From: an uncultured bacterium
GTDB lineage: Bacteria; Hydrothermota; UBA3072
Assembly: GCA_964476585.1 (NCBI GenBank)
Contig: CAYZBF010000002.1
Location: forward strand, 2,354 to 66,353
Direction: 5' to 3'
Length of the DNA stretch: 64,000 nucleotides
Position 1 is the first letter of the stretch. Each line of letters opens with the position of its first letter. The notes under the pieces are model-generated. The model made no database searches. It was given only the letters and a program-made list of their open reading frames with translations, and was not told the DNA's origin. A program made the position numbers and the translations under genes. Shown piece after piece: positions 23,113 through 49,731 of this stretch.

Positions 23113-24291
23113 ATGACTCTGGATTATGTTTGGAAGGATGTCTTCCGGGGAGGCCGTTTAGGTTTTTCCCCAAAAAAGATTTGGGTTGCAGTAAAAGGAC
23201 TTCTCTATGGAATAACAGGTTATGCAGTTCTTACGTACCTCTCATTAATGGTATCAGGATGGCAGATACAGAAAATATGGCAGGAATTCAGGTATATCCC
23301 GTTTCCATTCTTCCAAGGAAACCTTATATGGTATGGGTGGATAATTTGGGCAGTGGCAGGTCTTTGGGCATTATACCACTATTTCGTGACTATGACTGCT
23401 ATCTCTAAAATAACATATGAGCAATTAAAAGGAGATGAATTCTACGAATCTAAAGAAGCCTGGAGATTTGCTCGCAAGAACTGGAAAGGGACCTTCCTTT
23501 CTCCCATATATATGGCTTTGTTTATTGCTGCCCTCATACTAACAGGTTTGATTATTGGTCTGGCGGGAAGAATACCACATGTAGGACAAATACTTATAGG
23601 ATTATCTGCAATTCCAGTTTTTGCCGGTGCATTATTCGTAACATACCTAACAATCGTCCTCGGGATCATCCTCATCAGTGCTCCTGCCATTGTAGCTACC
23701 ACAGAGAGTGATACCTTTGACACTCTATTTGAGGGATTTTCACTGCTTAATGATCAAACCTGGAGATATATACTCTGGGAAGTTATTCTCCTGATTACAG
23801 TTTTCATAGGCGTGTTCATCTTCGCCTGGCTTTTCAAGTATGCATTTTCCTTAACACACCATATACTTGGAGTCTGGGCTGGCCCAAGGGGGTGGTGGAA
23901 TGTAATGTGGCATAATGGTCACTGGTATCTGTATATTCCTTGGCTGCCAATCTGGATTGCAAAATGGTTCCCCACTTTCTTCGCACCGATGCATTTCATA
24001 TCTGCAGGAGCTGAAAGCCTTTCCGCTTATCCAGGGGCTACTACGACGTTCGGTGGCTTCCTTATGGGACTTTCCTTTTATATGGTAACATTCGTAATCC
24101 TCGGGTATGGTATATCCACTCATGCAGCAGGACATACTATAATATACACAATTCTCGTCAAAATAAAAGACGAAAAGGACTTATTGAAAAAAGAAGAAAA
24201 ATTATTTGGAGGTGAACTCGAGGAGGAAGAAGAAGAGGTAGAAAAGAAAGAAAAAGGGGAAGAAAAGGAAGAGAAAGAGAAGAAAAAATAG
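23113..24291 (+). CDS. polytopic (about 8 TM) Trp-rich membrane protein with E/K-rich low-complexity C-terminal tail
   Basis: Multiple hydrophobic helices; tail GELEEEEEEVEKKEKGEEKEEKEKKK; RBS AGGAGG upstream. Confidence 0.5.
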   Translation: MTLDYVWKDVFRGGRLGFSPKKIWVAVKGLLYGITGYAVLTYLSLMVSGWQIQKIWQEFRYIPFPFFQGNLIWYGWIIWAVAGLWALYHYFVTMTAISKITYEQLKGDEFYESKEAWRFARKNWKGTFLSPIYMALFIAALILTGLIIGLAGRIPHVGQILIGLSAIPVFAGALFVTYLTIVLGIILISAPAIVATTESDTFDTLFEGFSLLNDQTWRYILWEVILLITVFIGVFIFAWLFKYAFSLTHHILGVWAGPRGWWNVMWHNGHWYLYIPWLPIWIAKWFPTFFAPMHFISAGAESLSAYPGATTTFGGFLMGLSFYMVTFVILGYGISTHAAGHTIIYTILVKIKDEKDLLKKEEKLFGGELEEEEEEVEKKEKGEEKEEKEKKK

Positions 24292-24329
24292 AAGAATAAA
24301 TAAAAATCAATCATATATAATTTACTGTA

Positions 24330-24360
24330 AAAACGCCCTTTCCAAGAAAGGGCGTTTTTA
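24330..24360 (+). terminator. rho-independent terminator
   Basis: aaaaACGCCCTTTccaagAAAGGGCGTttttta: a 9-bp GC-containing stem followed by a T-run. Confidence 0.75.
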
Positions 24361-24606
24361 CAATAATATACATAGTGTCAATAAAACCTTGACTATTGAA
24401 AAAACTTTTGTAGATTATTACAAATATTAAAAGGGGATAGTTTATTAATTGCCACAAAGGTTTTACTCCAGCGTAAGATAAAGAATGTGATTGAAAGATA
24501 AAATGAATAATTCGGATGATAGATACAGTGTTGCACTTTACATTCTGAAACTTTCGTTCTTCAACACTCTTGACAATATCTCTGTGGCGAAAGAAGGGAG
24601 GTTTTA

Positions 24607-26640
24607 ATGAAGAAGATTGTATTCTTTTTCTTAATAGTAATTCTTCTTACAGAGAGCTGCCAGAGAGCAAAAAAATTCACTTACGAAGGGAGAAAAGGCG
24701 GAACTTTGATTATTTCCCTCTTAAATGAGCCCACTTCCCTTAATCCCCTTTATCCAGCATTTTCAGGTCTTTCACCAGTTATAAAAGAGTTGTTTAGTCC
24801 TCTACATGACTACAGTCCTAATGGCAAAATAAGAACTTGTTTAGCTCAATCATGGGTATATTCAGAGGATCTAAAATCTATCACATATACAATTCGCAAA
24901 GACGCTAAGTGGCATGACGGAATGCCAATAACCTCGGCGGATATTGTCTTTACCGTAAAAAAAATAATGGATCCCAAAAGCAATTCACCACTTTCTCAAA
25001 GATTACGATATATAAAAGATGTAAAAGTAATTGGAGAGAGGGAGGTTCGGTTTGTATTTGATAGAGTATATGCAGATGAATTACTCCATACCAACATATT
25101 AATTATCCCAAAGCACAAAATTGAGAAGGGTATAGAGAATCTACAGATGAGTGACTTTAGTTTCAATCCAATAGGAAATGGTCCATACAAACTTAAAGCA
25201 TGGAAGCAGGGAGAGTGGATCGAGTTAATTGCAAGTAATGACTATTCCCGAGGGCGGCCTCCTCTTGACAGAATAGTTTTCTACTTCCCATCATCAATGG
25301 AAAAATTATTATACGAAATCAACTTGGGAAATATTGACATAGCGTATGATCTACCCCCTGCGCAGTATAATGGTATAAAAGGGTATAAAACCATAGTGTC
25401 TCCAGCTAGAGCTTATACTTATATCGGGTGGAATCTTGAACGTTTTAAAGACAAAAATCTGAGAAAAGCTTTCAGTATGGCCACCGACCGCAGGGGTATT
25501 ATATCCTCAATACTCTTAGGTTATGGTCTCCTATTAAATGGCCCAATAACTCCTGAACACTGGGCATTTAATCCTAACATAAAAGGTATCGATTATAATA
25601 AGCAAAAAGCAAAGGAATTAATAGAGGAACTTGGATATTCAAAGAGAAGCTGGCAACAATATTATCCAGGCTTAAGCATTGAAATACTGGTAGAAAGTGG
25701 GAACCCCATTCGAAGAAAAGTAGCAGATTATGTTATGTCTGATTTAAAATCAATAGGGGTTAATACAACCATCATAGAACTTAGAGGATCACAACTGATA
25801 GATCGCTTATTCAAACACAACTTTGACGCATACATCCTTGGATGGAGTGTTGAGAAAGACTTTAATCCTCTTCCAATCTGGGGTTCTAAAGGAGTGCATA
25901 ATTTTGTAGGTTATAAAAATAAGAAAGCCGACGCTTTAATGCAGGAAGCACTCTTTTCCCTTGACAGAGAAAAGGCTAAAAAAGCTTGGAATGAATTTCA
26001 GGAAATCATCGCAGGAGATCTTCCTTACACTTTCCTTTACGCACCTCAGAAGATAACACTGGTCAAGAAAACTGTAGGAGGCATAAAATCTGATGATAAA
26101 AGACCTGTAATTTCATTCCTGGACGAATTATGGCTTAAGGAACCTAAAGCCACTCCCGTTGAACTAGCGGCACTTGGAAAACACTATGAAAAAACTCAAG
26201 AGAGTAGAGTACGAAGCAGTATAGAGACAACTCCCCCACAACCGCAGACATCGACGGAAGAAATATTAGAAGCAGCAACATCCACTACTGTCTTGGAAGA
26301 AGAGAAACCCTCCGAAGCGGTAACCGAGGAAGAACCTAAGCCTGTCGAAGAAAAAAAGGGTCCTATAATACCACCTATCCTAAGTTATTACCCTCATGAA
26401 AGGGATTATCCTGATAATGCAAAAAAATTGGATATACGTGGGCAGATCTTTATAAAAGTCCACATTACGAAAGAAGGCACTGTTGAAAAAGCGGAAATTG
26501 CAAAAGGACTATTCCCCTCTTGTGACTCCGTAGCTTTGCTGGATGCTTATAAATGTAGATTTGATCCTGCAAAACAGGATGGAGAACCTGTAGAATTCAT
26601 ACTGACCCTTCCCTTCCGTTTCCCGCCTGGAGGGTGGTAG
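24607..26640 (+). CDS. family-5 solute-binding protein (OppA/DppA-like) fused to a Pro/Glu-rich linker and a TonB C-terminal domain
   Basis: Signal peptide with lipobox-like LTESC. SBP_bac_5-type core up to approx residue 520. Linker TTPPQPQTSTEE...EPKPVEEKKGP. C-terminal YPDNAKKLDIRGQIFIKVHITKEGTVEKAEIAKG...LLDAYKCRFDPAKQDGEPV matches the TonB_C signature. Confidence 0.7.
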   Translation: MKKIVFFFLIVILLTESCQRAKKFTYEGRKGGTLIISLLNEPTSLNPLYPAFSGLSPVIKELFSPLHDYSPNGKIRTCLAQSWVYSEDLKSITYTIRKDAKWHDGMPITSADIVFTVKKIMDPKSNSPLSQRLRYIKDVKVIGEREVRFVFDRVYADELLHTNILIIPKHKIEKGIENLQMSDFSFNPIGNGPYKLKAWKQGEWIELIASNDYSRGRPPLDRIVFYFPSSMEKLLYEINLGNIDIAYDLPPAQYNGIKGYKTIVSPARAYTYIGWNLERFKDKNLRKAFSMATDRRGIISSILLGYGLLLNGPITPEHWAFNPNIKGIDYNKQKAKELIEELGYSKRSWQQYYPGLSIEILVESGNPIRRKVADYVMSDLKSIGVNTTIIELRGSQLIDRLFKHNFDAYILGWSVEKDFNPLPIWGSKGVHNFVGYKNKKADALMQEALFSLDREKAKKAWNEFQEIIAGDLPYTFLYAPQKITLVKKTVGGIKSDDKRPVISFLDELWLKEPKATPVELAALGKHYEKTQESRVRSSIETTPPQPQTSTEEILEAATSTTVLEEEKPSEAVTEEEPKPVEEKKGPIIPPILSYYPHERDYPDNAKKLDIRGQIFIKVHITKEGTVEKAEIAKGLFPSCDSVALLDAYKCRFDPAKQDGEPVEFILTLPFRFPPGGW

Positions 26641-26646
26641 ACTTCA

Positions 26647-27210
26647 ATGAATGTAAGGTTTATTGAAAAACGAACTATGATGGATGCGGAAGAGATGCGC
26701 TGGTCTTTACGACGTATTTCACATCAGGTTATTGAAAATAACCCTCGACTTAAAAAAATCTGCATAATTGGGATCCGGAAAAGAGGTGACATATTAGCCA
26801 AAAGAATCGCAATAACATTAGGCGAGCTAACTTCATGGGATATCAAAGTAGGGGTACTTGATATCACTCTTTACCGGGACGACCTCACAACTTACGGACC
26901 CAAACCACTGATTGGGCCCACACACTTCCCCTGCCACATTGATGACTTGCATGTCTTACTTGTTGATGATGTAATACACACAGGGAGAACAATCAGGGCT
27001 GCCCTTGATGAAATTGTGGATTATGGTCGTCCTTCTACAGTAAAACTCGCAGTTATGGTAAACAGGAGCGGCAGAGAATTACCCATAATGCCTGATTACT
27101 CTGGAACGTCAGTAAATCTCGCATCGGGAGAGGAAGTTAAAGTTAATCTTTTGGAAACAGACGGAGAGGACTCAGTCAAGATAGTAGAGGTAAGCATTGA
27201 TAATGAATAG
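26647..27210 (+). CDS. pyrR: pyrimidine operon regulator / uracil phosphoribosyltransferase PyrR
   Basis: PRTase motif LLVDDVIHTGRTIRAALD; size and N-terminal region typical of PyrR. Confidence 0.85.
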   Translation: MNVRFIEKRTMMDAEEMRWSLRRISHQVIENNPRLKKICIIGIRKRGDILAKRIAITLGELTSWDIKVGVLDITLYRDDLTTYGPKPLIGPTHFPCHIDDLHVLLVDDVIHTGRTIRAALDEIVDYGRPSTVKLAVMVNRSGRELPIMPDYSGTSVNLASGEEVKVNLLETDGEDSVKIVEVSIDNE

Positions 27211-28138
27211 GAAAGACCTTTTAGGAATAGAAGATTTAAGTAGAGAAGAAATTGAGGAGATCCTAAGTGTAGCAGAATCCATGGAGGAGATTTTAGAGCG
27301 ACCAATAAAAATTGCCCCTACCCTTCGCGGAATTACTGTAGCAAATCTGTTCTTTGAACCTAGCACCCGAACTCTGAATTCTTTCGCGCTTGCAGAAAAA
27401 AGGCTTTCGGCGGATTATATCAATCTATCAGCGTCTTCTTCAAGCATTCTTAAGGGAGAAACTTTGCTTGACACGGCAAAGAATATACAGGCAATGGAGG
27501 TAGATATAATAGTTATAAGACATTCTATACCTGGGGCTCCTCACTTTCTTGCAGAAAGATTAGATGCTTCAGTGATAAATGCAGGAGATGGTGCACATGA
27601 ACATCCAACGCAGGCCTTACTTGATCTTAATACAATAAGAAAAAAAATGTCAACATTTGACAATTTAAAAGTTGCTATCATAGGTGACATCGAACACTCC
27701 CGAGTTGCCCGCTCACTCATTCTTGGGCTAAACAAAATGGGAGCTAAAGCTCATATATGCGGCCCACCCACTTTAATACCAAAATGGATGGACACATTTG
27801 ATGTCACGATTAACTACAATTTGGAAGAAGTTTTGCCTGACAAGGATATCATATATATATTAAGACTACAGATGGAAAGGCAACATGAAAGTTTTATTCC
27901 ATCAATTAGAGAATACATAAAATACTACAGTCTAACCTACGAAAGGTTGAAGAAATATGCATCTCCAGAAGTTTTAATAATGCATGCAGGTCCTATAAAT
28001 AGAGGAATTGAGATTGAATCTCGGGTGGCAGACTCAGAATATTCACTTATTTTAGATCAAGTAATTTCTGGTGTGGCAGTCAGAATGAGTATTCTCTACC
28101 TCTTAAGCAGGCAAAAGACCAATGAAGATAGCAATTAA
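27197..28138 (+). CDS. pyrB: aspartate carbamoyltransferase catalytic subunit
   Basis: FFEPSTRTLNSF (STRT) and HPTQALLD motifs. Confidence 0.9.
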   Translation: MIMNRKDLLGIEDLSREEIEEILSVAESMEEILERPIKIAPTLRGITVANLFFEPSTRTLNSFALAEKRLSADYINLSASSSSILKGETLLDTAKNIQAMEVDIIVIRHSIPGAPHFLAERLDASVINAGDGAHEHPTQALLDLNTIRKKMSTFDNLKVAIIGDIEHSRVARSLILGLNKMGAKAHICGPPTLIPKWMDTFDVTINYNLEEVLPDKDIIYILRLQMERQHESFIPSIREYIKYYSLTYERLKKYASPEVLIMHAGPINRGIEIESRVADSEYSLILDQVISGVAVRMSILYLLSRQKTNEDSN

Positions 28139-29414
28139 AGAAGCTCATCTTTTTGACCCCAAAAACAATATAGACGAGATTGGCAACATCTACATTGAGA
28201 ATGGCAGAGTAGTAGATGATTCTTCCAGCAAATCTTCAGATATTGAGATTGATGCCAGCAGCCTTCATCTCATACCAGGTCTTGTAGATATCCATTCTCA
28301 CTTTAGGGAACCAGGCAACGAGGATGCTGAGACAATAGAAAGCGGGTCCAGAGCTGCCGTCAAGGGAGGATTCACCTCAGTTTGTGTGATGCCAAACACA
28401 GAGCCCCCTATTGATAATGAGGGTGTGGCAAGATTCATAAAAGAAAAATCCATAAAGAGTAATAAATGTCGCATTTTTCCAATCGGAACTATCACCAAAG
28501 GTAGAGAAGGTAAAGAACTAGCTGAAATGGGACATCTCCATGAGGCAGGCTGTGTAGCTTTCAGTGATGATGGAAACTGTGTCATGGACCCTAACGTGCT
28601 CAGAAGAGCCCTAGAATATTCACTTCTTTTAGATGTCCCAATTATAGAGCACCCCGAAGATATGTCATTATCTAAGGATGGCCAGATAAATGAGGGTGTA
28701 ATATCAACCAGACTCGGATTTAAGGGAATACCCGATATATCCGAGGCCTCCATCGTAGCAAGAGACATACTTCTTGCTAAGTTTACAGGTGGAAAACTTC
28801 ACTTAGCCCATGTGTCGTCGAAGGAGTCAATAGACATTTTAGAATATGGTAAGAATAAGGGGATAAAAGTTACAGCCGAAGTAACACCACATCATCTCCT
28901 TCTAACCGAAGAAGCAGTTTTGAGTTTTGACACCAATACTAAGATGAAACCACCACTTAGAACCAAATCGGATAGAGAAGCCCTTCAGAAAGCATTAAAA
29001 AATGGAATTATAGATGTGGTGGCCACAGACCATGCACCTCATCCTGATTATGCGAAAGAGCTTGAATACTCCCTCGCTCCTTTTGGTGTAATTGGTCTGG
29101 AAACTGCCTTTAGCGTTCTATACACCAAATTAGTTCTCCCGGGCAATCTAAGTTTGAAACAATTAATTCTCAGTATGACTGATAAGCCTGCCAAGATACT
29201 CCGTCTCCCAGTGGGAGAAATAAAGAAGGGAGGGATTGCGGATTTCACCCTAATTGATCTTAATGCCAAGTGGGAGGTAAATCCTGATAATTTTGAATCT
29301 AAATCATCAAATTCTCCTTTCATTGGGTGGAAATTAAAGGGAGTTGTAGATTCAACCATAGTAAATGGTACCGTAACTTTTAGAGGGGGTGAATTCGTAC
29401 AGGAGGGAGAGTGA
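28122..29414 (+). CDS. pyrC: dihydroorotase (amidohydrolase superfamily)
   Basis: VDIHSHFREPG and ATDHAPH metal-binding motifs. Confidence 0.85.
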   Translation: MKIAIKEAHLFDPKNNIDEIGNIYIENGRVVDDSSSKSSDIEIDASSLHLIPGLVDIHSHFREPGNEDAETIESGSRAAVKGGFTSVCVMPNTEPPIDNEGVARFIKEKSIKSNKCRIFPIGTITKGREGKELAEMGHLHEAGCVAFSDDGNCVMDPNVLRRALEYSLLLDVPIIEHPEDMSLSKDGQINEGVISTRLGFKGIPDISEASIVARDILLAKFTGGKLHLAHVSSKESIDILEYGKNKGIKVTAEVTPHHLLLTEEAVLSFDTNTKMKPPLRTKSDREALQKALKNGIIDVVATDHAPHPDYAKELEYSLAPFGVIGLETAFSVLYTKLVLPGNLSLKQLILSMTDKPAKILRLPVGEIKKGGIADFTLIDLNAKWEVNPDNFESKSSNSPFIGWKLKGVVDSTIVNGTVTFRGGEFVQEGE

Positions 29415-31927
29415 CTAATTCATTTGATATATACGATCTTGAGGCAGCTTCCTTACTGGGAAGTAAATTCCTACTATCTTTAGAAGAAGGGGTTGGGAAA
29501 AGAGAAATCTATGAAAAATCCAAACAGACACTTTCTCGTTACTTTGAGTTGAGAGCTTTGGATACAAAAACTCTAGAATTTTTCAGCAGGCATAAAAGCA
29601 AATTTATCGTAGAACTGAATAATAAGGAAAGAGCATACCTGCGAGATATGTTCACACGACTATCAGAGGATAAGGTAAATAGAGAGGATATCCAATTCCT
29701 CAAAACCCTATCAGAAAATGTCATCGACAAGGAAATTCATTATTTCCCCTTACTTTTATCTCTAATACTGAAAACTTACCCCCGGGAATTAACTAAGGGA
29801 ACAAAAGACTCATTTAAGGTAGGTAAAAGGCTATCTAAGTTACTACAGGACATACTGAAGGGTAAAGAACTGGATAACCTCACCAAGGTGTTTCTGAAAG
29901 AACCTATTCCAATCGGCCTTCCACATATTAACACCTCACTAGAAGACTTACACAAATTTCTTACCCCCTATGGTTTTACTCCAGCTCTGTTCTCTAATAT
30001 CCATAGTATACTAATAAAAAACTTTACACAAAGAGAAAGTAGTGATATAGTTTCCCTGCTTAAAAATACAGATATATCGAGTATAGACGATCTGCGCAAC
30101 TTTCCTTTCCATGATTTCTTTAGGCCTGAGGATGAGACACTCGCAAGAATTTCAAGAATAGTTTCTGATAAAGCTTCTAAAGTGAAGCAGATATTAGTCC
30201 AAAAGGATATAGAACTTGACAGAAAGGATTTAAAGGTCCGTGAAGAAACTCACCAGCTCCTGCGGAGAAACGTAGAAAATTTACAATCTCTTATAGATGT
30301 AGCGAAGCGTGACCTTCAGGCAATGTTGAGTAAAACTCAGGAACAATTTACAGCATTGGAGAAAGCCCTGAAACTACATATAAGACATGTTCAAGCTCAT
30401 GAGAACGCTTCCATATCTTTAAAAAAAGCTATTGATGAGAATAAAGCACTACTCAATATAAGTATAGAGGATATAAAGTCATTATTTCCACCTCCTCCTC
30501 TCTGGGATATAGAATGTTTAGTTAAGGAATTCTGGCACGAATTACCTTATATCGAAATCATTGACCCTTCCTGCGAAAAACGAATAATTAAGCTTCTCAA
30601 GAGGGAAGAAAAGATAGCATCTGATAAAAAAGTATTTTTACAACTTTCGAATAGGGAGAAAAGCGGATTCATTCCTGATACAGAAAGAGTAATCTCAAAC
30701 TATTGTAATGTATTTAAAGAAATACTTGAGCCTTTACTCATCCGTGAGGTAATAAATCGTATGATTGAAATCTGGCCGCCCAATGTAGATTTCGAAAATC
30801 CTAAATCAAGAATTATTGCAACCAAAAAGATACACCTTGCAGGACTCAATCTACTACCAAGTGGACATTTTTATAGATTCGGGAGTAGAGGTAAAATAGA
30901 ACCCATTGTTGATAAAAAGCTTCTCAAAAAAAGAGAGCTTATATCAACCGCTCTAAGAAAGCGATTCTCAACCCTTGTTTCGGTGTTAGTCTATGACATT
31001 CGTGGATCAAGCTTTATGGCGCATCGCTTACGGAATGCTAAGAAGGAAAGAGCAATACGCAACAAGTTCCAATCCACCATGCTTGATGCTGCAATGAGAG
31101 GATCATCCTTTATATTAAAGGATACTGGCGATGGAGGAATCTTGTGGTTTGGAGGTAACTCTAAAAAGCACTACAGGAATATGTATAAGTGTCGTGAATG
31201 TAAATCGGGAGGTATCCTTCGTTCCTCCACTGCCTTTGAGGACGAATTCACATTATCCCCCCATCCAAAGAGTGCAGAGATGGCCATTAGAACCGCATTA
31301 AATCTAGTTCAAACTGCAGAGGAATTTGTAAGAGAAAATTATATGAACTACAGGGATTGGTTTGAAGAAATAACAGAGAAAGAAATTTTTCACGATGGAA
31401 TAACTTATGCCTTACTACCCCCAAAGTTCAAATCATTATTCAGACTTGGTATAGGGATAGCAAGCGGACAACCCATCAAGGATATTATATTCTCACCGAA
31501 CGCCTTTGGAGATCCGGATCTTACAGGCATCATCATTGACGAATCTGCTCTGTTTTCATCCGGAAAGAGCCCTGAACGTTCAGTAATATTAATAGACCAC
31601 TGCACACTAATAAATCTGCTTCTCAACTCAGATCAATATTTTTTAACTGAACTTCTAACCAGGGAAGATTCTGACGAGGCAGTTATCAACAAGCTCCTTA
31701 CTATTCTTAAAAGAGAAGAAACTGAACAGGAATTCATATTCGAGGATTTCACTATATCACCAGTGGGGCTCTATTATATCGATCACAAGGATAAAAATAA
31801 GAGGATAGAGTTCAAACTCTGGAAGAATTTAAAATTAGAATTCAATGATAGAGGAGAGTTATCTTGTAAGAGAGGCCGGGTGAAGATACTATATGAGGTC
31901 TCGGGTAAGGAAAAGAATGAAAAATAG
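29411..31927 (+). CDS. large protein with an N-terminal helical region (no homology recognised) and a C-terminal class-III nucleotidyl-cyclase-like (CHD-like) domain
   Basis: GTG start overlapping the pyrC stop (GTGA). VSVLVYDIRGSSF resembles the FxDIxGFT motif, and ILKDTGDGGILWFGG resembles K-x-GD metal-Asp motif 2. Confidence 0.45.
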   Translation: MTNSFDIYDLEAASLLGSKFLLSLEEGVGKREIYEKSKQTLSRYFELRALDTKTLEFFSRHKSKFIVELNNKERAYLRDMFTRLSEDKVNREDIQFLKTLSENVIDKEIHYFPLLLSLILKTYPRELTKGTKDSFKVGKRLSKLLQDILKGKELDNLTKVFLKEPIPIGLPHINTSLEDLHKFLTPYGFTPALFSNIHSILIKNFTQRESSDIVSLLKNTDISSIDDLRNFPFHDFFRPEDETLARISRIVSDKASKVKQILVQKDIELDRKDLKVREETHQLLRRNVENLQSLIDVAKRDLQAMLSKTQEQFTALEKALKLHIRHVQAHENASISLKKAIDENKALLNISIEDIKSLFPPPPLWDIECLVKEFWHELPYIEIIDPSCEKRIIKLLKREEKIASDKKVFLQLSNREKSGFIPDTERVISNYCNVFKEILEPLLIREVINRMIEIWPPNVDFENPKSRIIATKKIHLAGLNLLPSGHFYRFGSRGKIEPIVDKKLLKKRELISTALRKRFSTLVSVLVYDIRGSSFMAHRLRNAKKERAIRNKFQSTMLDAAMRGSSFILKDTGDGGILWFGGNSKKHYRNMYKCRECKSGGILRSSTAFEDEFTLSPHPKSAEMAIRTALNLVQTAEEFVRENYMNYRDWFEEITEKEIFHDGITYALLPPKFKSLFRLGIGIASGQPIKDIIFSPNAFGDPDLTGIIIDESALFSSGKSPERSVILIDHCTLINLLLNSDQYFLTELLTREDSDEAVINKLLTILKREETEQEFIFEDFTISPVGLYYIDHKDKNKRIEFKLWKNLKLEFNDRGELSCKRGRVKILYEVSGKEKNEK

Positions 31928-33464
31928 AATGTACGAATTCGAGGAAACAATAAAAGCAATTAACTCTAAAGAATTAAATATTGGCGAAGTTCTTAGCTTA
32001 ATAATGAAAATCATATCACGCTCGATTAATGCTAAAGCCTGGTCTCTTTTACTGCTGGATGAAAGAAGTAAAGAACTTGTCTTTGAAGAAGTTATTGGAG
32101 AAAAAAGTGAAGAATTAACCGGGAAAAGGATGCCTATGGATAAAGGGATAGTGGGCTGGGCAATAGAAAACGAGAAATCAGTAATTGTCTCGGACCCATA
32201 TAATGATGAGAGATTCTTTAAGGATATTGATAAAGACACAGGCTTTAAGACAGAATGTATTCTGGCAGTTCCTCTAATCAGTAAGGGACGTATTCTTGGA
32301 ATTATTGAGGCAATAAATAAAACAGATGGAACGAGTTTCAATGAGAATGATTTACAATTAGTAAATAATTATGCTGAACATGCAGCTATTGCTCTCGAAA
32401 ATGCAAATCTTGTACAGAGTTTACAAAGCAAAGTGAGATATCTAACACTCATTTCTGATATTAATAAAAATATAACCTCGATACTGGATCTTGAAATGCT
32501 TCTTAAGAAGAGTGCACAATTAATCCAGAAGACATTTGATTACTATTATACCGCTATAGGACTCTTTGAAGATGACAGGATTACACTCAAGGGATTCTCT
32601 TCCTCTGAAAACATTAAACCTGTCCGCACTATTATAAAAAAAGGTGAAGGACTTGTAGGGAAGGTTATAAAGAATAAGGAAAGAATTATAGTACCAGATA
32701 CTGAGAAAGATTCTAATTACTTTGAAGGGATTAAAGGGATAAAAAGCGAAATGGTAATCCCGATTAAAAGAGAGAGCGGTTTCTTAGGAATTATTGATAT
32801 TGGTTCACCGGAGAAATATGTATTCTCAATAGAGGAAGCAAACATCATAAGTGAAGTATCATACCAATTAGCAACTGCTGTGGAGAACGCAAAACTTTAC
32901 CAGGAAATCAGGCTTGCATCAATCACAGATGATATCACAGGTTTATATAATTCAAGGTATTGCAATGAAAAACTCCCTGATATTGTTAACAGATGGCACA
33001 CTGCTGAAAAAGTAGGTTCTTTAATATTCATGGATATTGATCATTTTAAAAATGTTAACGATTCTTACAATCATCTGATTGGAAGCAAATTATTGCATTT
33101 AGTGGGAAGAAGGATAAAGGATATCTTAGATGAAGCTAAAATAGGAATCAGATATGGTGGTGATGAATATATAATTGTTATGGAGGGTCTGGGATTAGAA
33201 GAAGCAATTGCTTTTACTAAAGAAATAAAAAATTTAATTTCGTCAAAGCCATATATAATTAGGGATAATTCTAATAAAATTGAATGTTGGGTTAAAGCCA
33301 GCTTTGGGATAGCGAGTTTCCCAGACGTAACAACTAATTCTCAGGAATTACTCCGTCTTGCCGACCTTGCGATGTACTATGTAAAATCCAATGGAAGGGA
33401 TAATATAGCCTATATGGACAGAAAAGCTGATATTAAGCTACTTAATGAGCAAACAAATTCTTGA
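31893..33464 (+). CDS. GAF-GAF-GGDEF domain protein (GGDEY variant), putative diguanylate cyclase
   Basis: Two GAF-like regions. GGDEF domain with DIDHFKNVND and RYGGDEYIIV. The likely true start is at 31917 or 31929 (MKNRMYEF / MYEF). Confidence 0.8.
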   Translation: MRSRVRKRMKNRMYEFEETIKAINSKELNIGEVLSLIMKIISRSINAKAWSLLLLDERSKELVFEEVIGEKSEELTGKRMPMDKGIVGWAIENEKSVIVSDPYNDERFFKDIDKDTGFKTECILAVPLISKGRILGIIEAINKTDGTSFNENDLQLVNNYAEHAAIALENANLVQSLQSKVRYLTLISDINKNITSILDLEMLLKKSAQLIQKTFDYYYTAIGLFEDDRITLKGFSSSENIKPVRTIIKKGEGLVGKVIKNKERIIVPDTEKDSNYFEGIKGIKSEMVIPIKRESGFLGIIDIGSPEKYVFSIEEANIISEVSYQLATAVENAKLYQEIRLASITDDITGLYNSRYCNEKLPDIVNRWHTAEKVGSLIFMDIDHFKNVNDSYNHLIGSKLLHLVGRRIKDILDEAKIGIRYGGDEYIIVMEGLGLEEAIAFTKEIKNLISSKPYIIRDNSNKIECWVKASFGIASFPDVTTNSQELLRLADLAMYYVKSNGRDNIAYMDRKADIKLLNEQTNS

Positions 33465-35013
33465 AATCTATCCTGACTTAAAATATCCTGTAACACTGGC
33501 AAAGATAGACAATCAATATGCCTCACTGGAAGAAAAAGTCCCCCTCGGTGGAAAGATTGAAATTCTGGATGTCAACAATACAGAGGGTAGAAGAACCTAT
33601 GAAAGAACCCTTGTGTTTCTCCTTGATTATATAGCAAAGAGAAAAGGAGTAACTATTAAGATAGAACATTCTTATGGAGACGCTTTATATTGCAGGTTTT
33701 TGAAGGGTTCATTAAATCTAAATACTACAAAAAAAGAAATAATCGATTTGATCAAGGCAAATAAAAAAATAGAACGCTTAATGTTACCAAAATTAGAGGC
33801 TACACATTTCTTAGAGGAAAGGGAAGACGACCTGAACATTTTAAAACACCTCTCTCGAACTTATATTCCAGTATATAAACTTGACGATTTCGCAGCATAT
33901 TATGCAGGTCCATTATTGCCCAAGACCGGATTCTTATCAATATTTGACCTGATAAAGATTGCGGATGGATTCCTGGTCATCCTTCCAACACAAGAGGATC
34001 CCTCCACTTTAGGCAAAATTGAAGGAGGGGAGCAACTATTTAAAACATATAAAGAAGCAAGGAGGGAAGCGGAGATCCTAAAAGTATGGGATGTAGCACG
34101 TTTGAATGAATATGTCGTCTCTGGTGCAATATCGGAAATAGTAAAGACAGCCGAAGCAATCCACACCGAGAAAATAACGGAGATATGTAAGGAAATATTG
34201 AGTGGTAGAGAAAGAACGAAGATGATACTTATATCGGGTCCTTCATCTTCTGGAAAAACTACATTTTCAAAAAGGTTAGGAGTACATCTCCGCATACACG
34301 GCATTACTCCTCTTTATATATCTCTTGATAATTATTTTCTAGAGAGAAAGAAAACACCATTATACATAGATGGCACTCCCTTTTTTGACACCTTTGAAGC
34401 ACTAGATGTAAAGCTGTTTGGAGAACATATTTCACAGATTCTTTCAGGAAAGGAAGTAAAAGAATTAACCTTCAATTTTAAAAAGGGAAGGAAGGAATGG
34501 TTTGGCAAGACATACAAACTAACGCCTAAAACAATCCCTGTGATTGAAGGAATACATGCTTTTAATCCGGGACTTTTAAAAGATATGGAAATAAGTACTT
34601 TTCTTATCTATGTCAGTGCCCTTACTCAATTAAATATTAATAGGGTGAACCGCATACCTACTCGTGATGTTCGACTTCTCCGTAGAATTTTCAGAGATAC
34701 ACGTTTCAGGGGCCATTCAGCCGATCAGACCCTAAAGCAATGGGCTTCTGTAAAAGAAGGGGAAGAGAAATTTATTTTTCCATATCAGGAAAGAGCAGAT
34801 ATTATGTTTAACTCCTCTCTAGTATATGAACTTGCAGTTTTAAAAAGCTTCCTTGAAACGCCCCTCCGTTGCGTCGACACCACTTCCCCTTATTACTGCG
34901 AAGCACTGCGATTATTGAATTTCCTGGATCATTTTCTCGGTATAAGAGAGGATGAAATTCCCCCAACTTCAATCCTGCGCGAATTTATCGGTGGAAGTAC
35001 CTTTTACTATTGA
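33445..35013 (+). CDS. uridine kinase/phosphoribulokinase-family P-loop nucleoside kinase with a ~230-aa N-terminal extension
   Basis: ISGPSSSGKTTFSKRL Walker A; Udk-like core over residues ~250-480. Overlaps the upstream gene by 20 nt. Confidence 0.65.
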   Translation: MSKQILEIYPDLKYPVTLAKIDNQYASLEEKVPLGGKIEILDVNNTEGRRTYERTLVFLLDYIAKRKGVTIKIEHSYGDALYCRFLKGSLNLNTTKKEIIDLIKANKKIERLMLPKLEATHFLEEREDDLNILKHLSRTYIPVYKLDDFAAYYAGPLLPKTGFLSIFDLIKIADGFLVILPTQEDPSTLGKIEGGEQLFKTYKEARREAEILKVWDVARLNEYVVSGAISEIVKTAEAIHTEKITEICKEILSGRERTKMILISGPSSSGKTTFSKRLGVHLRIHGITPLYISLDNYFLERKKTPLYIDGTPFFDTFEALDVKLFGEHISQILSGKEVKELTFNFKKGRKEWFGKTYKLTPKTIPVIEGIHAFNPGLLKDMEISTFLIYVSALTQLNINRVNRIPTRDVRLLRRIFRDTRFRGHSADQTLKQWASVKEGEEKFIFPYQERADIMFNSSLVYELAVLKSFLETPLRCVDTTSPYYCEALRLLNFLDHFLGIREDEIPPTSILREFIGGSTFYY

Positions 35014-39876: not shown

Positions 39877-42800
39877 ATGCGAAAATTTATAATGTTCATC
39901 CTTTTTATAGGTTCTTTACTCCTTTCTGGAGAATCTCTTATTATAAATATTTTCTCTCCGGATTACAGAATTAAAACGATTGGAGAATATGAATATATAT
40001 TCACCAGGGATGGAGATCATATACTAAAATTAGGGGCTCCAGAATTACCGGTCTGCAGAGAAAAAATATTGCTTCCTTCGAATGCAAAAAATATTGAACT
40101 TAATATAAAGAGTATAGAACAGGAAATTCTTTCTGATTCTTATTACCTACCTCCTGTTCAGAAACCTGCAATTCTCTCAAATATCAATTTCAAAGTTCCT
40201 GAAAGAGTAGATGAAGATCCGATTGTTTATAACTCGAGTGGACCATTCCCTGAAAAAATTGTAGAGTTAAAAGGGGTTGGTAATCTCAGGGGAATGCAAA
40301 GCTGTGATATCATATACCATCCCTTTCAGTGGATACCAAACAAAAGAAAACTCATCTATAATAAATCAATTGAGTTGGAAATAAACTACTCATTAGAGGG
40401 CTCTCTATCTCAAAGAAAACCTTCCAGAATTGAATCACGGATAAAGAGAACAATCTTTTTAAATAGTCAGGGAAGTAAAGAATATTTAGAAGATGATACA
40501 GTGGGTATCGATTATATAATCATAACAGATTCATCATTTGTGGATGAATTCAAGGCTCTACTTAGATGGAAAAGAGAGAAGGGTCTTCGCTCTCGCATAG
40601 TCACCACCGACAGTATCTATAATAATTACCTTGGCCTTGATCACCAGGAAAGGATAAGAAATTTCATAAAGGATATGTACCAGAACCATAATCTCTTATG
40701 GGTTCTGCTTGGAGGAGACACAGATATCGTACCCTCCAGGATTGCCTATGCTATGAATTCAGAAGCAGGATTTGCTTTGGACGAGGATGACTTACATGCA
40801 GACCTGTACTACTCTGACCTTGATGGGAATTGGAATGAAAATGGACATGTACCATGGGGAGAGATATCTGATTCTGTCGACCTCTATCCAGACGTATTTG
40901 TTGGACGAGCGCCGGTTGATACTGAAGAAGAGGTGAATACTTTCGCAGTCAAAGTAATACGTTACGAAAAAAATCCACCCACAGATTATCTAAATAAAGC
41001 ACTATTTCTTGGAGAAATACTATGGGATGATCCATATACAGACGCTGGAGTTGGAAAGGACAAAATTGACAGTTTATATATTCCCAATTGGATAAACCTC
41101 ACCAAACTCTACGAATCGCTTAATAACGAGCGTTCTGAGGAAGTGGCAAATTCAATTAATGATGGACAAAACCTTATCAATCATGATGGACACGCATGGT
41201 ATAACTGTATGGGAATGGGCGAGGATTATTTCTACCGTTCTGACATGGACGCCCTTGGAAATGGGGACAGTCTTTCCATCCTCTATTCCATCGGGTGCTG
41301 GGCAGGAGCCTTTGACTATGACGCAATATCTGAACACTTCATTAACAATCCAAATGGTGGAGGTGTAGCTTTCATCGGTAACTCCCGATATGGATGGGGG
41401 TCTCCTGGGTATCCTGGATTCGGATATTCAGACCGTTTCGATGCCTCTTTCTTTTCAAATCTATTCGATAAAAAATACACAAATATAGGTCTTGCTCTTG
41501 CCATGACAAAGGCCGATTACATTCCAAGGAGTCGTGAAGAGAACGTATACCGAGTGCATCAATACCAACTCAATCTCCTGGGTGATCCAGAAATGCCCGT
41601 ATGGTTGAACAAACCTTCAAAAATGTTTATAGTAGCACCTGAGGCAATACAGGATAGCATTCCATTCCAAGTAAGGGTTACCGACACCTTGAATGTCCCT
41701 TTAGGAGATGTCCGAATCTGCATTACAAATTTTGATGGAGATTCCAATGGAGTTTCTATCTTAAAACGTTCCTACACAGATGAACTCGGGGACGTCTTAT
41801 TTTCCATTAATTGTCAATATCCCTGTTCCTTACTCATTACTGCAACACTGGATGGATATATACCTGCCCAGAGAACTATAACCCTCACTGCAGATGGATC
41901 TTATCTTTCTTGCATCCAGAAAGATATAAATGAAATATCAGGTAACAATGACGGAATCATAAACCCTGGAGAAGAGATTGATATTGCGTTAGATATGAAA
42001 AATACTGGCAATGAAATCATTGATAGTTTAGACTTACTACTAAATTCAAAAAATTCATCCATTAAGATTACTGACAGTTTGTTCACCTATCCACATTCTC
42101 TTAAACCCGATAGTACTTTCCAGTGCACTTTTTCTTTCAATGTAGATTCCAACCTCACTGCTCAATCTCCTGTCAATTTCGAATTAATTGGAACCTCAGG
42201 GTCTCATTCCTGGATGAATATTTTCTCAGAGATGATAGGCATTCCCAATTTACATATCGTGCTCAGGGGAATATCACTTTATGGAGATGACAGCATACCA
42301 AATGGTAGCGATTATTTAGTATATCATTACAGATTAAAAAATGACGGATATGAAAATGGATTTGGTATACGGGTTATATTCTCCTCACATAATCCATATA
42401 TTACCCTCATAGACTCATTCTCCTATATTGATACTCTTCTCTCTGGAAATGAAATAGCGGAATCGCTTTCTGTATATATCTCCCCTGATATAGTTGAACC
42501 TTATTTAGCCTTCATTCATTCAGATATAACCACACAGGATAATTTTACTTTCAATGATTCCTTTTTGCTAAAAATAGGAGAAACAGGATTTTTTGATAAT
42601 CTTGAATCAGGGACATCGAAGTGGGAACACTATGGAACAAATGATTGTTGGCATTTGAGTGATTACAGAAGTCATTCTGGGGATTCTGCTTTTTACTGTG
42701 GGATTGAATCTAGCCATCAATATATTAATTCAATGGAAGCAGTCCTTAGAACTAAAGCCCTAACAATCTTTCCTCCCTGCACTCTCTCCTTCTATCACTA

Positions 42801-43350
42801 CTATGAATACCCAAACTATGGTAACGATGGTCTCTTTGTGATAATAGAACATGATTTTACTATGGACACGCTTGATTATATTGGGAGTGGTGGAGCACTG
42901 GACTCAACTTACAACATTGGTAATTCCTGGCTTGTTGATAAATACGATTTATCCTATATCAACACATGTGATCCGATTCGACTCTATTTCGTATTTACAT
43001 CCGATAATGATGACCATGCTGAAGGAATGTACATTGATGATATTCGAGTAACGGGTAGTTCTCCTCCCTCAAGTGGTATTCCTACAGAAGAAAGGTGCGC
43101 ATTACAACTCTCCTCCAGTATAATCTATTGCCCTGGATGGGCCTTTATCACCCTGGATGAACCCACTAACATCTCCTTAAAACTATATGACAGAACTGGA
43201 AGATTAATAAAGAAATTAATTGATAATGAATTATACCAGAGAGGAACTCATCCTGTAAAAATACTGAGGAATCTACCTTCAGGAATATATTTCCTTAATC
43301 TTTCAGGGAATAACTTACGAGAAACTCGGAAAATAGTAATATTTCGTTAG
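39877..43350 (+). CDS. secreted C25-family (gingipain-like) cysteine peptidase with T9SS-type C-terminal sorting domain
   Basis: Signal peptide. IDYIIITDSSFVDEFKALLRWKREKGLRSRIVTTDSI matches the C25 N-terminal region, NHDGHAWYN the His region and SIGCWAGAFD the Cys region. The C-terminal ~80 aa (LYDRTGRLIKKL...SGIYFLNL...RKIVIFR) matches the Por/T9SS CTD pattern. Confidence 0.65.
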   Translation: MRKFIMFILFIGSLLLSGESLIINIFSPDYRIKTIGEYEYIFTRDGDHILKLGAPELPVCREKILLPSNAKNIELNIKSIEQEILSDSYYLPPVQKPAILSNINFKVPERVDEDPIVYNSSGPFPEKIVELKGVGNLRGMQSCDIIYHPFQWIPNKRKLIYNKSIELEINYSLEGSLSQRKPSRIESRIKRTIFLNSQGSKEYLEDDTVGIDYIIITDSSFVDEFKALLRWKREKGLRSRIVTTDSIYNNYLGLDHQERIRNFIKDMYQNHNLLWVLLGGDTDIVPSRIAYAMNSEAGFALDEDDLHADLYYSDLDGNWNENGHVPWGEISDSVDLYPDVFVGRAPVDTEEEVNTFAVKVIRYEKNPPTDYLNKALFLGEILWDDPYTDAGVGKDKIDSLYIPNWINLTKLYESLNNERSEEVANSINDGQNLINHDGHAWYNCMGMGEDYFYRSDMDALGNGDSLSILYSIGCWAGAFDYDAISEHFINNPNGGGVAFIGNSRYGWGSPGYPGFGYSDRFDASFFSNLFDKKYTNIGLALAMTKADYIPRSREENVYRVHQYQLNLLGDPEMPVWLNKPSKMFIVAPEAIQDSIPFQVRVTDTLNVPLGDVRICITNFDGDSNGVSILKRSYTDELGDVLFSINCQYPCSLLITATLDGYIPAQRTITLTADGSYLSCIQKDINEISGNNDGIINPGEEIDIALDMKNTGNEIIDSLDLLLNSKNSSIKITDSLFTYPHSLKPDSTFQCTFSFNVDSNLTAQSPVNFELIGTSGSHSWMNIFSEMIGIPNLHIVLRGISLYGDDSIPNGSDYLVYHYRLKNDGYENGFGIRVIFSSHNPYITLIDSFSYIDTLLSGNEIAESLSVYISPDIVEPYLAFIHSDITTQDNFTFNDSFLLKIGETGFFDNLESGTSKWEHYGTNDCWHLSDYRSHSGDSAFYCGIESSHQYINSMEAVLRTKALTIFPPCTLSFYHYYEYPNYGNDGLFVIIEHDFTMDTLDYIGSGGALDSTYNIGNSWLVDKYDLSYINTCDPIRLYFVFTSDNDDHAEGMYIDDIRVTGSSPPSSGIPTEERCALQLSSSIIYCPGWAFITLDEPTNISLKLYDRTGRLIKKLIDNELYQRGTHPVKILRNLPSGIYFLNLSGNNLRETRKIVIFR

Positions 43351-47808: not shown

Positions 47809-49731
47809 ATGAAAATAAAAATAAAACTTTTTATAAATGAGAAATCTTATATTGTAGAGGCAGAAGAAGTAATTACTCTAAAAGAAATACTTAAGAATCA
47901 AGATTTGTCACTTCTTGAAAAATACGCAGGAGCTTGGAGTAATAATAATTTTATAGATTTTCATACCCCTATAAAAGAAGGAGCTGAATATTGTCTCCTC
48001 TCTTTTGGTGACCCCCGAATATTCCCAGCCATGTGGCATACTACATCTCATATAATGGCACAATCAATAAAACGCCTCTACAATGTGAATCTTGCAATAG
48101 GACCCGCAATTGAAGAAGGATTTTATTATGATATGGAGAAGGATGTGCCATTCACTGACGAGGACATAGATGCGATTTCAAAAGAGATGAAGAAGGTAAT
48201 AGAAAGCGACTTTCCTATTGAGCACTCTATAATTTCAAAGGAAGAGGCGCGAGAACTTTTCAAAGACAACAAGTTCAAGTTAGAATTGATTCACGAGATT
48301 GAGGGGAATTCTGTTTCAATTTATAAGCAACACGAATTCGTTGACCTCTGCAGGGGTCCTCATTTACTTTCTACCGGAAAGATAAAAAACTTCAGATTGT
48401 TATCCGTTTCTGGTTCATATTGGCGTGGAGATGAAACCAGGGAATCGCTTCAGCGCATATATGGTATATCATATCCAAATAAAAAGGCTCTTGATGATTT
48501 CCTTTACCGATATGAGGAAGCAAAGAAAAGGGATCATAGAAAACTTGGTAAGAAGTTAAAACTTTTCAACATTTACGAGGAGTCAGGTCCAGGACTTGTA
48601 CTCTGGCACCCAAAAGGAGCAATAATAAGGGAAATAATAGAAGAGTATTGGAAGAAAGAACATATTAAGCGTGGTTATCAGATAGTTAGAACACCACATA
48701 TCGCAAGGGCTGAACTCTGGAAAAAAACTGGACATTTTGACTATTACTTTGAGAATATGTTCACCTTTGAAATCGATAACGCGGAATATGTAGTTAAGCC
48801 AATGAATTGTCCCTATCATATCCTCATTTATAACAGTGAAATCAGGAGTTACCGTGACCTTCCAATCCGCTTTGCAGAGCTTGGAGCTGTATATCGAAAT
48901 GAACGATCTGGTGTCTTACATGGGATGCTACGAGTCCGTGGCTTTACTATAGACGACGGTCATATATTCTGCAGGGAGGATCAGGTGAAATCCGAGATAG
49001 GGAATGCAGTGGACTTCGCATTTGACATAATAAAAACCTTTGGTTATGAGGACTTCGTAGTGCAACTCTCGGTTAGAGACCCCAAGCATAAAGAGGACTA
49101 TGCAGGAAGCGATGAAGAATGGGAAAGGGCAGAATCCGCGTTAACATCTGCTCTAGATGAGCGAGAAATAGAATATGTAAGTATGGCGGGAGAAGCTGTC
49201 TTCTACGGGCCAAAGATCGATATATCGATGAAGGATGTCTTGGGCAGGAAATGGCAGGGTCCGACCATTCAGTTCGACTTCAACCTCCCTGGAAGACTTG
49301 GAATGACTTATATTGGTGAAGACGGAAAAGAGCAAACTGTATATATGATTCACCGTGCTCTCCTCGGATCGCTTGAACGGTTCGTTGGAGGTCTTATCGA
49401 ACATTACAACGGAAATTTCCCCACCTGGCTTGCACCAACTCAGATCAAAATACTAACTGTAACCGATAAAGGTAACGAATTTGCTCTAAAAATACATGAA
49501 AAATTAATTGAAGAGAATTTACGGGTTGAGCTTGATCTTAGAAACGAACAATTATCAAAGAAAATCAGAGATGCAGAAACAGAGAAAATCCCCTATATGT
49601 TTATCATAGGAAGTAGAGAAGTAAAATTAGGAACTGTCTCAGTTAGGCATCACAGGGGGGGAAATATTGGTAGTTTTGGATTAGATGAAATTATCTCTCA
49701 AATAAAAGAGGAAATAAAACAAAGGAGGTAA
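47809..49731 (+). CDS. thrS: threonyl-tRNA synthetase
   Basis: N-terminal TGS domain, class II core motifs, C-terminal anticodon-binding domain; 640 aa. Confidence 0.9.
   Translation: MKIKIKLFINEKSYIVEAEEVITLKEILKNQDLSLLEKYAGAWSNNNFIDFHTPIKEGAEYCLLSFGDPRIFPAMWHTTSHIMAQSIKRLYNVNLAIGPAIEEGFYYDMEKDVPFTDEDIDAISKEMKKVIESDFPIEHSIISKEEARELFKDNKFKLELIHEIEGNSVSIYKQHEFVDLCRGPHLLSTGKIKNFRLLSVSGSYWRGDETRESLQRIYGISYPNKKALDDFLYRYEEAKKRDHRKLGKKLKLFNIYEESGPGLVLWHPKGAIIREIIEEYWKKEHIKRGYQIVRTPHIARAELWKKTGHFDYYFENMFTFEIDNAEYVVKPMNCPYHILIYNSEIRSYRDLPIRFAELGAVYRNERSGVLHGMLRVRGFTIDDGHIFCREDQVKSEIGNAVDFAFDIIKTFGYEDFVVQLSVRDPKHKEDYAGSDEEWERAESALTSALDEREIEYVSMAGEAVFYGPKIDISMKDVLGRKWQGPTIQFDFNLPGRLGMTYIGEDGKEQTVYMIHRALLGSLERFVGGLIEHYNGNFPTWLAPTQIKILTVTDKGNEFALKIHEKLIEENLRVELDLRNEQLSKKIRDAETEKIPYMFIIGSREVKLGTVSVRHHRGGNIGSFGLDEIISQIKEEIKQRR

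Follow-up and report, generated by a model that had tools for sequence, protein, structure and literature searches.

A highly divergent class III cyclase domain encoded beside a pyrimidine operon, a diguanylate cyclase gene or both in candidate bacterial phyla

We consider here a gene for an 838-amino-acid protein, referred to as X838, located in a stretch of 64,000 nucleotides (the window) from an uncultured bacterium of the Hydrothermota (UBA3072; GenBank assembly GCA_964476585.1, contig CAYZBF010000002.1, positions 2,354 to 66,353). The C-terminal ~320 residues of X838 are almost certainly a highly divergent class III cyclase domain of the CyaB/CyaC type. The gene (29411-31927) belongs to a tight string on the forward strand that comprises, in order, an SBP_bac_5/TonB_C fusion, a pyrR-like phosphoribosyltransferase gene (26647-27210), pyrB (27197-28138), pyrC (28122-29414), X838, a GAF-GAF-GGDEF diguanylate cyclase gene (31893-33464) and a gene for a 522-amino-acid protein with a threonyl-tRNA synthetase-like N-terminal region and a P-loop kinase of the uridine kinase family (33445-35013), which is the last of the overlapping string. 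The successive junctions are a gap of 6 nt and overlaps of 14, 17, 4, 35 and 20 nt.

The open reading frame of X838 begins with a GTG codon, with AGGAGGGAG just upstream and a 4-nt overlap with the pyrC stop codon; the starts of the homologues coincide with it and the opposite strand carries stop codons throughout. The product is a cytoplasmic multidomain protein, the highest hydrophobicity of any 19-residue window (1.07) being too low for a membrane or signal segment. Residues 1-240 (29411-30130) are helical in a low-confidence model and gave no Pfam, NCBIfam or PDB sequence match; the N-terminal region is found, though divergent, in every full-length relative, and residues 1-240 are presumed to be a sensor or regulatory module. 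A pair of helices follows (residues 241-296 and 299-348; 30131-30454), assigned by DSSP on the low-confidence full-length model and resembling a coiled-coil hairpin, and residues 273-353 gave weak coiled-coil matches only (vimentin, tektin; E~0.07-0.1). The linker (residues 349-519; 30455-30967) bears a conserved WPP at residues 455-457; residues 440-519 are modelled confidently as helices and a hairpin, with a helix at residues 502-519 running into the cyclase domain.

The core of the class III cyclase homology domain (residues 520-745; 30968-31645) has the order β1-α1-α2-β2-β3-α3-β4-β5-β6-α4-β7-α5. Motif 1, VSVLVYDIRGSSF, on β1 (residues 523-535; 30977-31015) contains D529 and aligns with LTVFFSDIRGFTEL of CyaB; motif 2, ILKDTGDGGILWFGG, on the β2-β3 hairpin (residues 568-582; 31112-31156) contains K570 and D574 and aligns with IDKFVGDCVMVFFG of CyaB and VVKSQGDGFMVAF of Ma1120. 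The two Asp residues are 45 residues apart. Relative to canonical cyclase domains the core is interrupted twice, each time by ~35 residues: insertion 1 (residues 584-620; 31160-31270), a helix and β-hairpin by DSSP that appears as a template gap in hhalign, includes R604, conserved in 36/47 relatives, and insertion 2 (residues 643-676; 31337-31438), defined by an hhalign gap and by the model, has a YRDWF...LPP motif and is of low confidence at residues 655-666. The segment NAFGDPDLTG and helix α4 (residues 697-719; 31499-31567) were located with HMMER, which aligned fGdlDltGslvreanlf with RMDYTIIGREVNLASRL. A C-terminal extension (residues 746-838; 31646-31924), with one helix and β strands that both complete and extend the cyclase sheet, carries the conserved K825 and LYEV.

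Whole X838 had no usable match in Pfam, NCBIfam or PADLOC; for 34 full-length relatives Pfam gave coiled-coil noise only, as did phmmer with X838 and the full-length profile against PDB sequences. Cyclases were reached in the PDB sequence search only by the trimmed core profile of the family. This profile (33 sequences, residues 512-748) matched Pseudomonas aeruginosa CyaB with E = 1.3e-5, both Asp and the Lys being aligned, followed by Ma1120, Cya2 and CyaC with weaker E-values. Comparing the family with CyaB-like fragments by hhalign gave E = 4.6e-6, a rough comparison, the CyaB-side alignment consisting mostly of short fragments from a CyaB-seeded search. The AlphaFold model of the full-length protein, built from 9 sequences, was poor (predicted local distance difference test, pLDDT, 44) and its N-terminal half was entirely helical, including two helices of ~50 residues each at residues 241-348; the model of residues 440-838, built from a 47-sequence alignment, reached a pLDDT of 86.5 and a predicted template modelling score of 0.87. 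Using Foldseek against the PDB, we found that the top 50 matches of the latter model were all class III adenylyl or guanylyl cyclase domains, each with probability 1.00. In the fold comparison purine cyclases scored above pyrimidine cyclases, and of the other folds GGDEF domains scored at most 9.9, Cas10 ~9 and mCpol 8.1; X838 has neither the GG(D/E)EF hairpin nor the palm fold of GGDEF type. That the two motifs are a chance resemblance in an unrelated fold might be suggested by the failure of Pfam, NCBIfam and PADLOC and by the poor first full-length model, but it is refuted by the Foldseek top 50, the CyaB profile match and the fold comparison. These matches confirm the cyclase fold and exclude chance, the probability of which is practically negligible. 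The original prediction, drawn from the DNA letters, had described this open reading frame as having two Asp motifs ~45 residues apart in a cyclase-homology fold, behind ~480 residues without recognisable motif. The frame, the motifs and their spacing are real, the fold emerged with class III cyclases on top of the structure and profile comparisons and GGDEF domains lower, and the lack of an N-terminal motif agrees with Pfam, including the full-length relatives, and with the HMMER search. Its helical N-terminal half likewise recurs in the low-confidence full-length model, and the hydrophobicity maximum bears out its remark that no signal peptide is evident.

Conservation of the active site was counted over 47 aligned relatives that are 27-85% identical to X838 in the modelled region. 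Both metal-binding Asp of class III cyclases are present, one on β1 and one on the β2-β3 hairpin: D529 is Asp in 45/46 relatives and aligns with the Asp of CyaB FSDIRGFT, and D574 is Asp in 46/47 and aligns with the Asp of CyaB VGD. As to base recognition, guanylyl cyclases use a substrate pair of Glu plus Cys/Ser/Thr and others, and at the second substrate-specifying position most adenylyl cyclases have Asp, whereas CyaB has Thr. By alignment, X838 carries a Lys/Asp pair. Its Lys, K570, is conserved in 46/47 relatives and corresponds in the alignment to a Lys in both CyaB and Ma1120; its Asp, D703, is conserved in 47/47 and stands three residues ahead of G706, which HMMER aligned to the Gly opening α4 (GxxVNxASR in canonical enzymes), and D703 is therefore at the second substrate-specifying position. 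The spacing of D703, +7 and +11 is that of D157/A164/R168 in Ma1120 (PMC4215837). In class III cyclases such a Lys/Asp pair sets the preference for ATP (PMC4215837). Further positions are near-invariant and specific to the family (Y528, R531, N583, N697, S716, S724 and D729): Y528 and R531 are kept in every relative with sequence there (R531 in 46/46), N697, D703 and G706 are invariant, and position 719 is Arg or Lys in 43/47.

The gene directly downstream encodes a diguanylate cyclase with two GAF domains by Pfam and the active site RYGGDEY. Its annotated ATG at 31893 accounts for the 35-nt overlap with X838; the orthologues suggest that the true start is the ATG at 31917 (Met9), with an 11-nt overlap. 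The first GAF domain, GAF-A (residues 15-172; 31935-32408), matches best, over the whole length, the GAF domain of Leptospira interrogans Lcd1 (PDB 5W10; E = 7e-27), and further the cyclic nucleoside monophosphate (cNMP)-binding GAFs of CyaB2, PDE2A, PDE10A and PDE5/6; of the 18 matches with E<1e-10, all but one are cNMP-GAF proteins. The partner thus falls in the group of diguanylate cyclases with a cNMP-binding type of GAF. The structure 5W10 is named as the Lcd1 GAF (PMC11800159), and PMC8846402 lists Lcd1 among the diguanylate cyclases activated by cAMP. An INK...F...D signature and the RYGGDEY site are conserved in partners from several candidate phyla, and the X838-linked orthologues in loci L001-L038 all read RYGGDEY, not GGDEF or GGEEF.

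A word-index search found 9 close homologues of X838 (55-100% identity) with uninformative names, the single named one being a "hypothetical protein", and repeating it with a 34-sequence alignment recovered those 9 proteins again. When 1.84 billion cluster representatives were searched exhaustively with an HMMER profile, 49 clusters of the family emerged, all members of ~730-940 residues or their fragments; none of the 49 bridges the family to canonical cyclases. In a genome scan the hosts were metagenome-assembled genomes (MAGs) of Ca. Stahlbacteria, WOR-3, TA06, Cloacimonadota and Edwardsbacteria, the closest being a Stahlbacteria MAG at 78% identity. The X838 family is a rare, unannotated cyclase lineage restricted to candidate phyla, with an atypical catalytic set and fixed gene partnerships. 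One WOR-3 MAG (L017) has a second, partial paralogue cut by the contig end (7-1200, forward strand; corresponding to residues ~423-748, 37% identity) upstream of its SBP-pyrR-pyrB-pyrC cluster, and its full-length copy lies ~1.3 kb away from pyrC.

All 38 loci that we compared link X838 to pyr genes, to a diguanylate cyclase gene or to both. The order pyrR-pyrB-pyrC-X838 is conserved in 30/38, including WOR-3 lineages in which X838 is only 27-40% identical and where only a convergent rho gene stands 3' of it. In 24 of the 38 loci, from Stahlbacteria/WOR-3, Cloacimonadota and Edwardsbacteria, the gene directly 3' of X838 encodes a GAF-GGDEF protein; in the latter two phyla the partner has an additional REC-like domain and pyr genes are absent nearby. 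The gene for the 522-residue protein follows X838 or the diguanylate cyclase gene in Stahlbacteria-type loci.

From these data we propose that X838 is a non-canonical, probably ATP-using cyclase feeding a relay from a cNMP to cyclic di-GMP (c-di-GMP), a reading for which the arguments on either side seem to us about equally balanced. The protein is fairly likely to be enzymatically active. By analogy with class III enzymes, the cyclase domain would form a head-to-tail homodimer in which D529 and D574 hold two metal ions. The Lys/Asp pair K570/D703 is typical of adenylyl cyclases and so points to the conversion of ATP to 3',5'-cAMP and pyrophosphate as the most likely reaction; on the same residues, cAMP may tentatively be named as the product. 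The helical and coiled-coil N-terminus of ~500 residues would gate the cyclase in response to some cue. The cyclic nucleotide would then bind the Lcd1-like GAF-A of the downstream diguanylate cyclase and raise c-di-GMP, the two-gene module thereby converting a cue into c-di-GMP; such a relay to the neighbouring enzyme, modelled on Lcd1, is quite conceivable. Co-transcription with pyrR-pyrB-pyrC, which we propose for the module or for just X838 in WOR-3 lineages, and which in Stahlbacteria-type loci would also take in the Udk-like kinase, would tie expression to pyrimidine biosynthesis.

Several observations speak against this proposal. The canonical cyclase model PF00211 (Guanylate_cyc) matched 1/33 isolated family cores, with E = 0.07. 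The transition-state Asn/Arg pair is missing from α4: position 710, canonically Asn, is Arg in 18 relatives, Asn in 14, Asp in 8 and Ser in 4 (Asp in X838), and position 714, canonically Arg, is hydrophobic (among the 47 relatives, Leu in 24, Ile in 10 and Phe in 6). The residue equivalences were themselves taken from sequence and profile alignments, and the ligand of GAF-A was read from similarity. The adjacent diguanylate cyclase is absent in 13/38 loci, all of WOR-3 type, and the relay therefore cannot be the sole role of X838. The Asn is dispensable, active Ma1120 carrying Ala (PMC4215837) and active Rv1900c His at this position; for an active class III cyclase without the transition-state Arg we found no precedent. 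With the canonical pair absent, catalysis by X838 would be weak or reliant on other residues, of which R531, N697 and R/K719 are candidates, and the family-specific residues together with R/K719 could compensate for the loss.

The missing Arg at position 714 also favours a pseudo-cyclase or nucleotide sensor, which would bind ATP or another nucleoside triphosphate and metal without cyclisation and, as a regulatory module, act through protein contact on either the Pyr enzymes or the diguanylate cyclase; a P. aeruginosa regulator whose ATP-binding domain is class III cyclase-like (PDB 6yii) would be its analogue. We consider this unlikely. Pseudoenzymes usually lose metal and base-recognition residues, whereas X838 relatives have kept both in 45-47 of 47 cases despite low identity, and a diffusible cyclic nucleotide offers the best explanation for a partner with a cNMP-type GAF. 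The same fold might also serve another two-metal nucleotidyl-transfer chemistry, for instance one whose product is an oligonucleotide, linear or cyclic, or some other derivative of a nucleotide, with N697, R531, R/K719 and R604 in place of Asn/Arg; this is highly improbable, as mononucleotide cyclases are clearly what X838 matches overall and no positive sign of another product was seen.

The pyr operon context would suit a housekeeping pyrimidine cyclase that converts UTP or CTP to cUMP or cCMP in connection with pyrimidine metabolism. This conserved context does not in itself show a pyrimidine substrate, however, and such an enzyme is very unlikely here. Purine cyclases match X838 better, K570/D703 is the adenine pair, and the partner GAF is nearest to cAMP- and cGMP-binding GAFs. 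The pyrimidine-specifying residues are F100/R142/Q144 in EaPycC and F60/K104/F109 in AnPycC (PMC11224242); their equivalents in X838 are V527/K570/T572 and V527/T572/I577 respectively, an argument of moderate weight, the equivalences following from motif offsets only. PADLOC gave no PycC match for X838, only two noise matches (E = 0.04 and 0.2) to unrelated models, and neither the X838 locus nor the 38 related loci has an adjacent PycTM or PycTIR effector gene; the remaining genes of the window are housekeeping (aminoacyl-tRNA synthetases, a penicillin-binding protein, DnaK, RNase Y, CoaE), not a defence island. X838 homologues of Cloacimonadota and Edwardsbacteria, moreover, have no nearby pyr genes. 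The original prediction had entertained a Pycsar-type cCMP/cUMP product, which the adenylyl-type pair, the lack of a PADLOC PycC match or effector and the housekeeping surroundings do not support: substrate-specifying residues of cyclases are indeed present, but of the adenylyl and not of the PycC type. It had also set the gene between pyrC and a uridine-kinase-like gene; the pyr context proved real and conserved, but the adjacent diguanylate cyclase with its cNMP-type GAF, the most informative neighbour, had been overlooked. A wider combination, which we hold to be quite unlikely, is that X838 both founds a class III lineage without the Asn/Arg pair and serves as a housekeeping link from pyrimidine biosynthesis to c-di-GMP, either through N-terminal sensing of the pathway status or through a nucleotide signal other than cAMP, for example cCMP or cUMP in a role unrelated to phage defence, for which the neighbouring GAF diguanylate cyclase would be the reader.

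Returning to the neighbourhood, an Rfam search for a PyrR attenuator RNA before or within the pyrR-pyrB-pyrC string (24200-27300) found none, so that PyrR-dependent attenuation cannot be claimed; two tRNAs were the only Rfam matches above threshold in the whole window, and no regular-expression match to a canonical FxDIxGFT...KxxGD cyclase was found across all the related loci retrieved. Promoter and terminator scans stayed at background level except for a strong hairpin at 24322-24366 (both strands), a perfect, GC-containing 20-bp stem between a 392-residue open reading frame and the operon, which is probably a bidirectional terminator and has a sub-threshold Rfam match to the Bacteroides small RNA BTnc231 (28.5 bits; gathering score, 80.4). 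The 392-residue frame (23113-24291, forward strand) has no Pfam match and is syntenic and 75-82% identical in Stahlbacteria-type relatives. The first gene of the string (24607-26640, forward strand) encodes a family-5 solute-binding protein that is unusual in being fused to a C-terminal TonB_C domain; the gap between this gene and pyrR is 6 nt, and its synteny is kept in relatives from Stahlbacteria, WOR-3 and TA06. The 522-residue protein has a Udk/PRK-type P-loop kinase domain at residues ~257-464 (GPSSSGKTT), to which the uridine kinase model gives 84 bits, short of that model's cutoff, and its residues 91-194 resemble the editing/SAD region of the threonyl-tRNA synthetase of the window (47809-49731; pairwise E = 9e-7); where the diguanylate cyclase is missing, as in L003 and L006, its gene still adjoins X838. 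A few genes 3' of the operon lies a gene for a 1157-residue gingipain-like C25 peptidase with a propeptide domain (39877-43350, forward strand). In a Cloacimonadota locus (L021; 8142-9488 and 14165-15721, forward strand), a TldD/PmbA-type peptidase gene precedes the pair of X838 and diguanylate cyclase genes, and a Ser/Thr protein kinase with a PEGA domain, a further signalling enzyme, is encoded downstream.

A fold and a testable function are hereby assigned to a family that Pfam, NCBIfam and PADLOC miss, that source databases call hypothetical and that is confined to candidate phyla of which little is known (WOR-3/Stahlbacteria/TA06, Cloacimonadota and Edwardsbacteria). If X838 is active, class III cyclases can do without an Arg supposed to be essential and the catalytic consensus would have to be revised; if the domain is inactive, it would be a well-conserved pseudo-cyclase sensor, which is less notable. 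Through its fixed link to a GAF diguanylate cyclase of Lcd1 type, X838 would form part of a hard-wired relay from cNMP to c-di-GMP, and as the tail of a pyrR-pyrB-pyrC operon it provides a specific example in which to study the coupling of nucleotide biosynthesis to second-messenger signalling.

Compared with the catalytic domains of known class III cyclases (P. aeruginosa CyaB, 3r5g; Spirulina CyaC, 1wc1; Synechocystis Cya2, 2w01; Mycobacterium avium Ma1120), X838 shows only 17-21% identity. It differs from the canonical enzymes in being invisible to PF00211, in its hydrophobic residue for the Arg and unconserved Asn, in its two ~35-residue insertions, in the family-specific Y528, N697 and GDGG hairpin and in the ~500 residues without known domain that precede the cyclase domain. 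X838 is not a member of the Pycsar systems: relative to PycC (7r65, 8jsf, 8jsz) it is 3-4 times longer, it stands apart from any transmembrane or TIR cNMP effector gene, defence context or PADLOC match, and its specificity positions hold the Lys/Asp pair of adenylyl cyclases, not the published PycC residues. With Lcd1 the partner of X838 has in common the GAF-GGDEF architecture, GAF-A aligning over the whole Lcd1 GAF, and by analogy the proposed logic would be shared as well, cAMP turning on c-di-GMP synthesis; the partner differs in having two GAFs (plus the REC-like domain in Cloacimonadota and Edwardsbacteria), a GGDEY site and a fixed place beside a dedicated divergent cyclase. The DUF2652 proteins, a divergent bacterial family whose likeness to class III cyclases was recognised purely by computation (Ramakrishnan et al. 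2016, PMC4886424), retain the Arg and lose the Asn, whereas X838 loses the Arg and matches no Pfam model; both families keep the pair of metal-binding Asp together with an atypical transition-state set.

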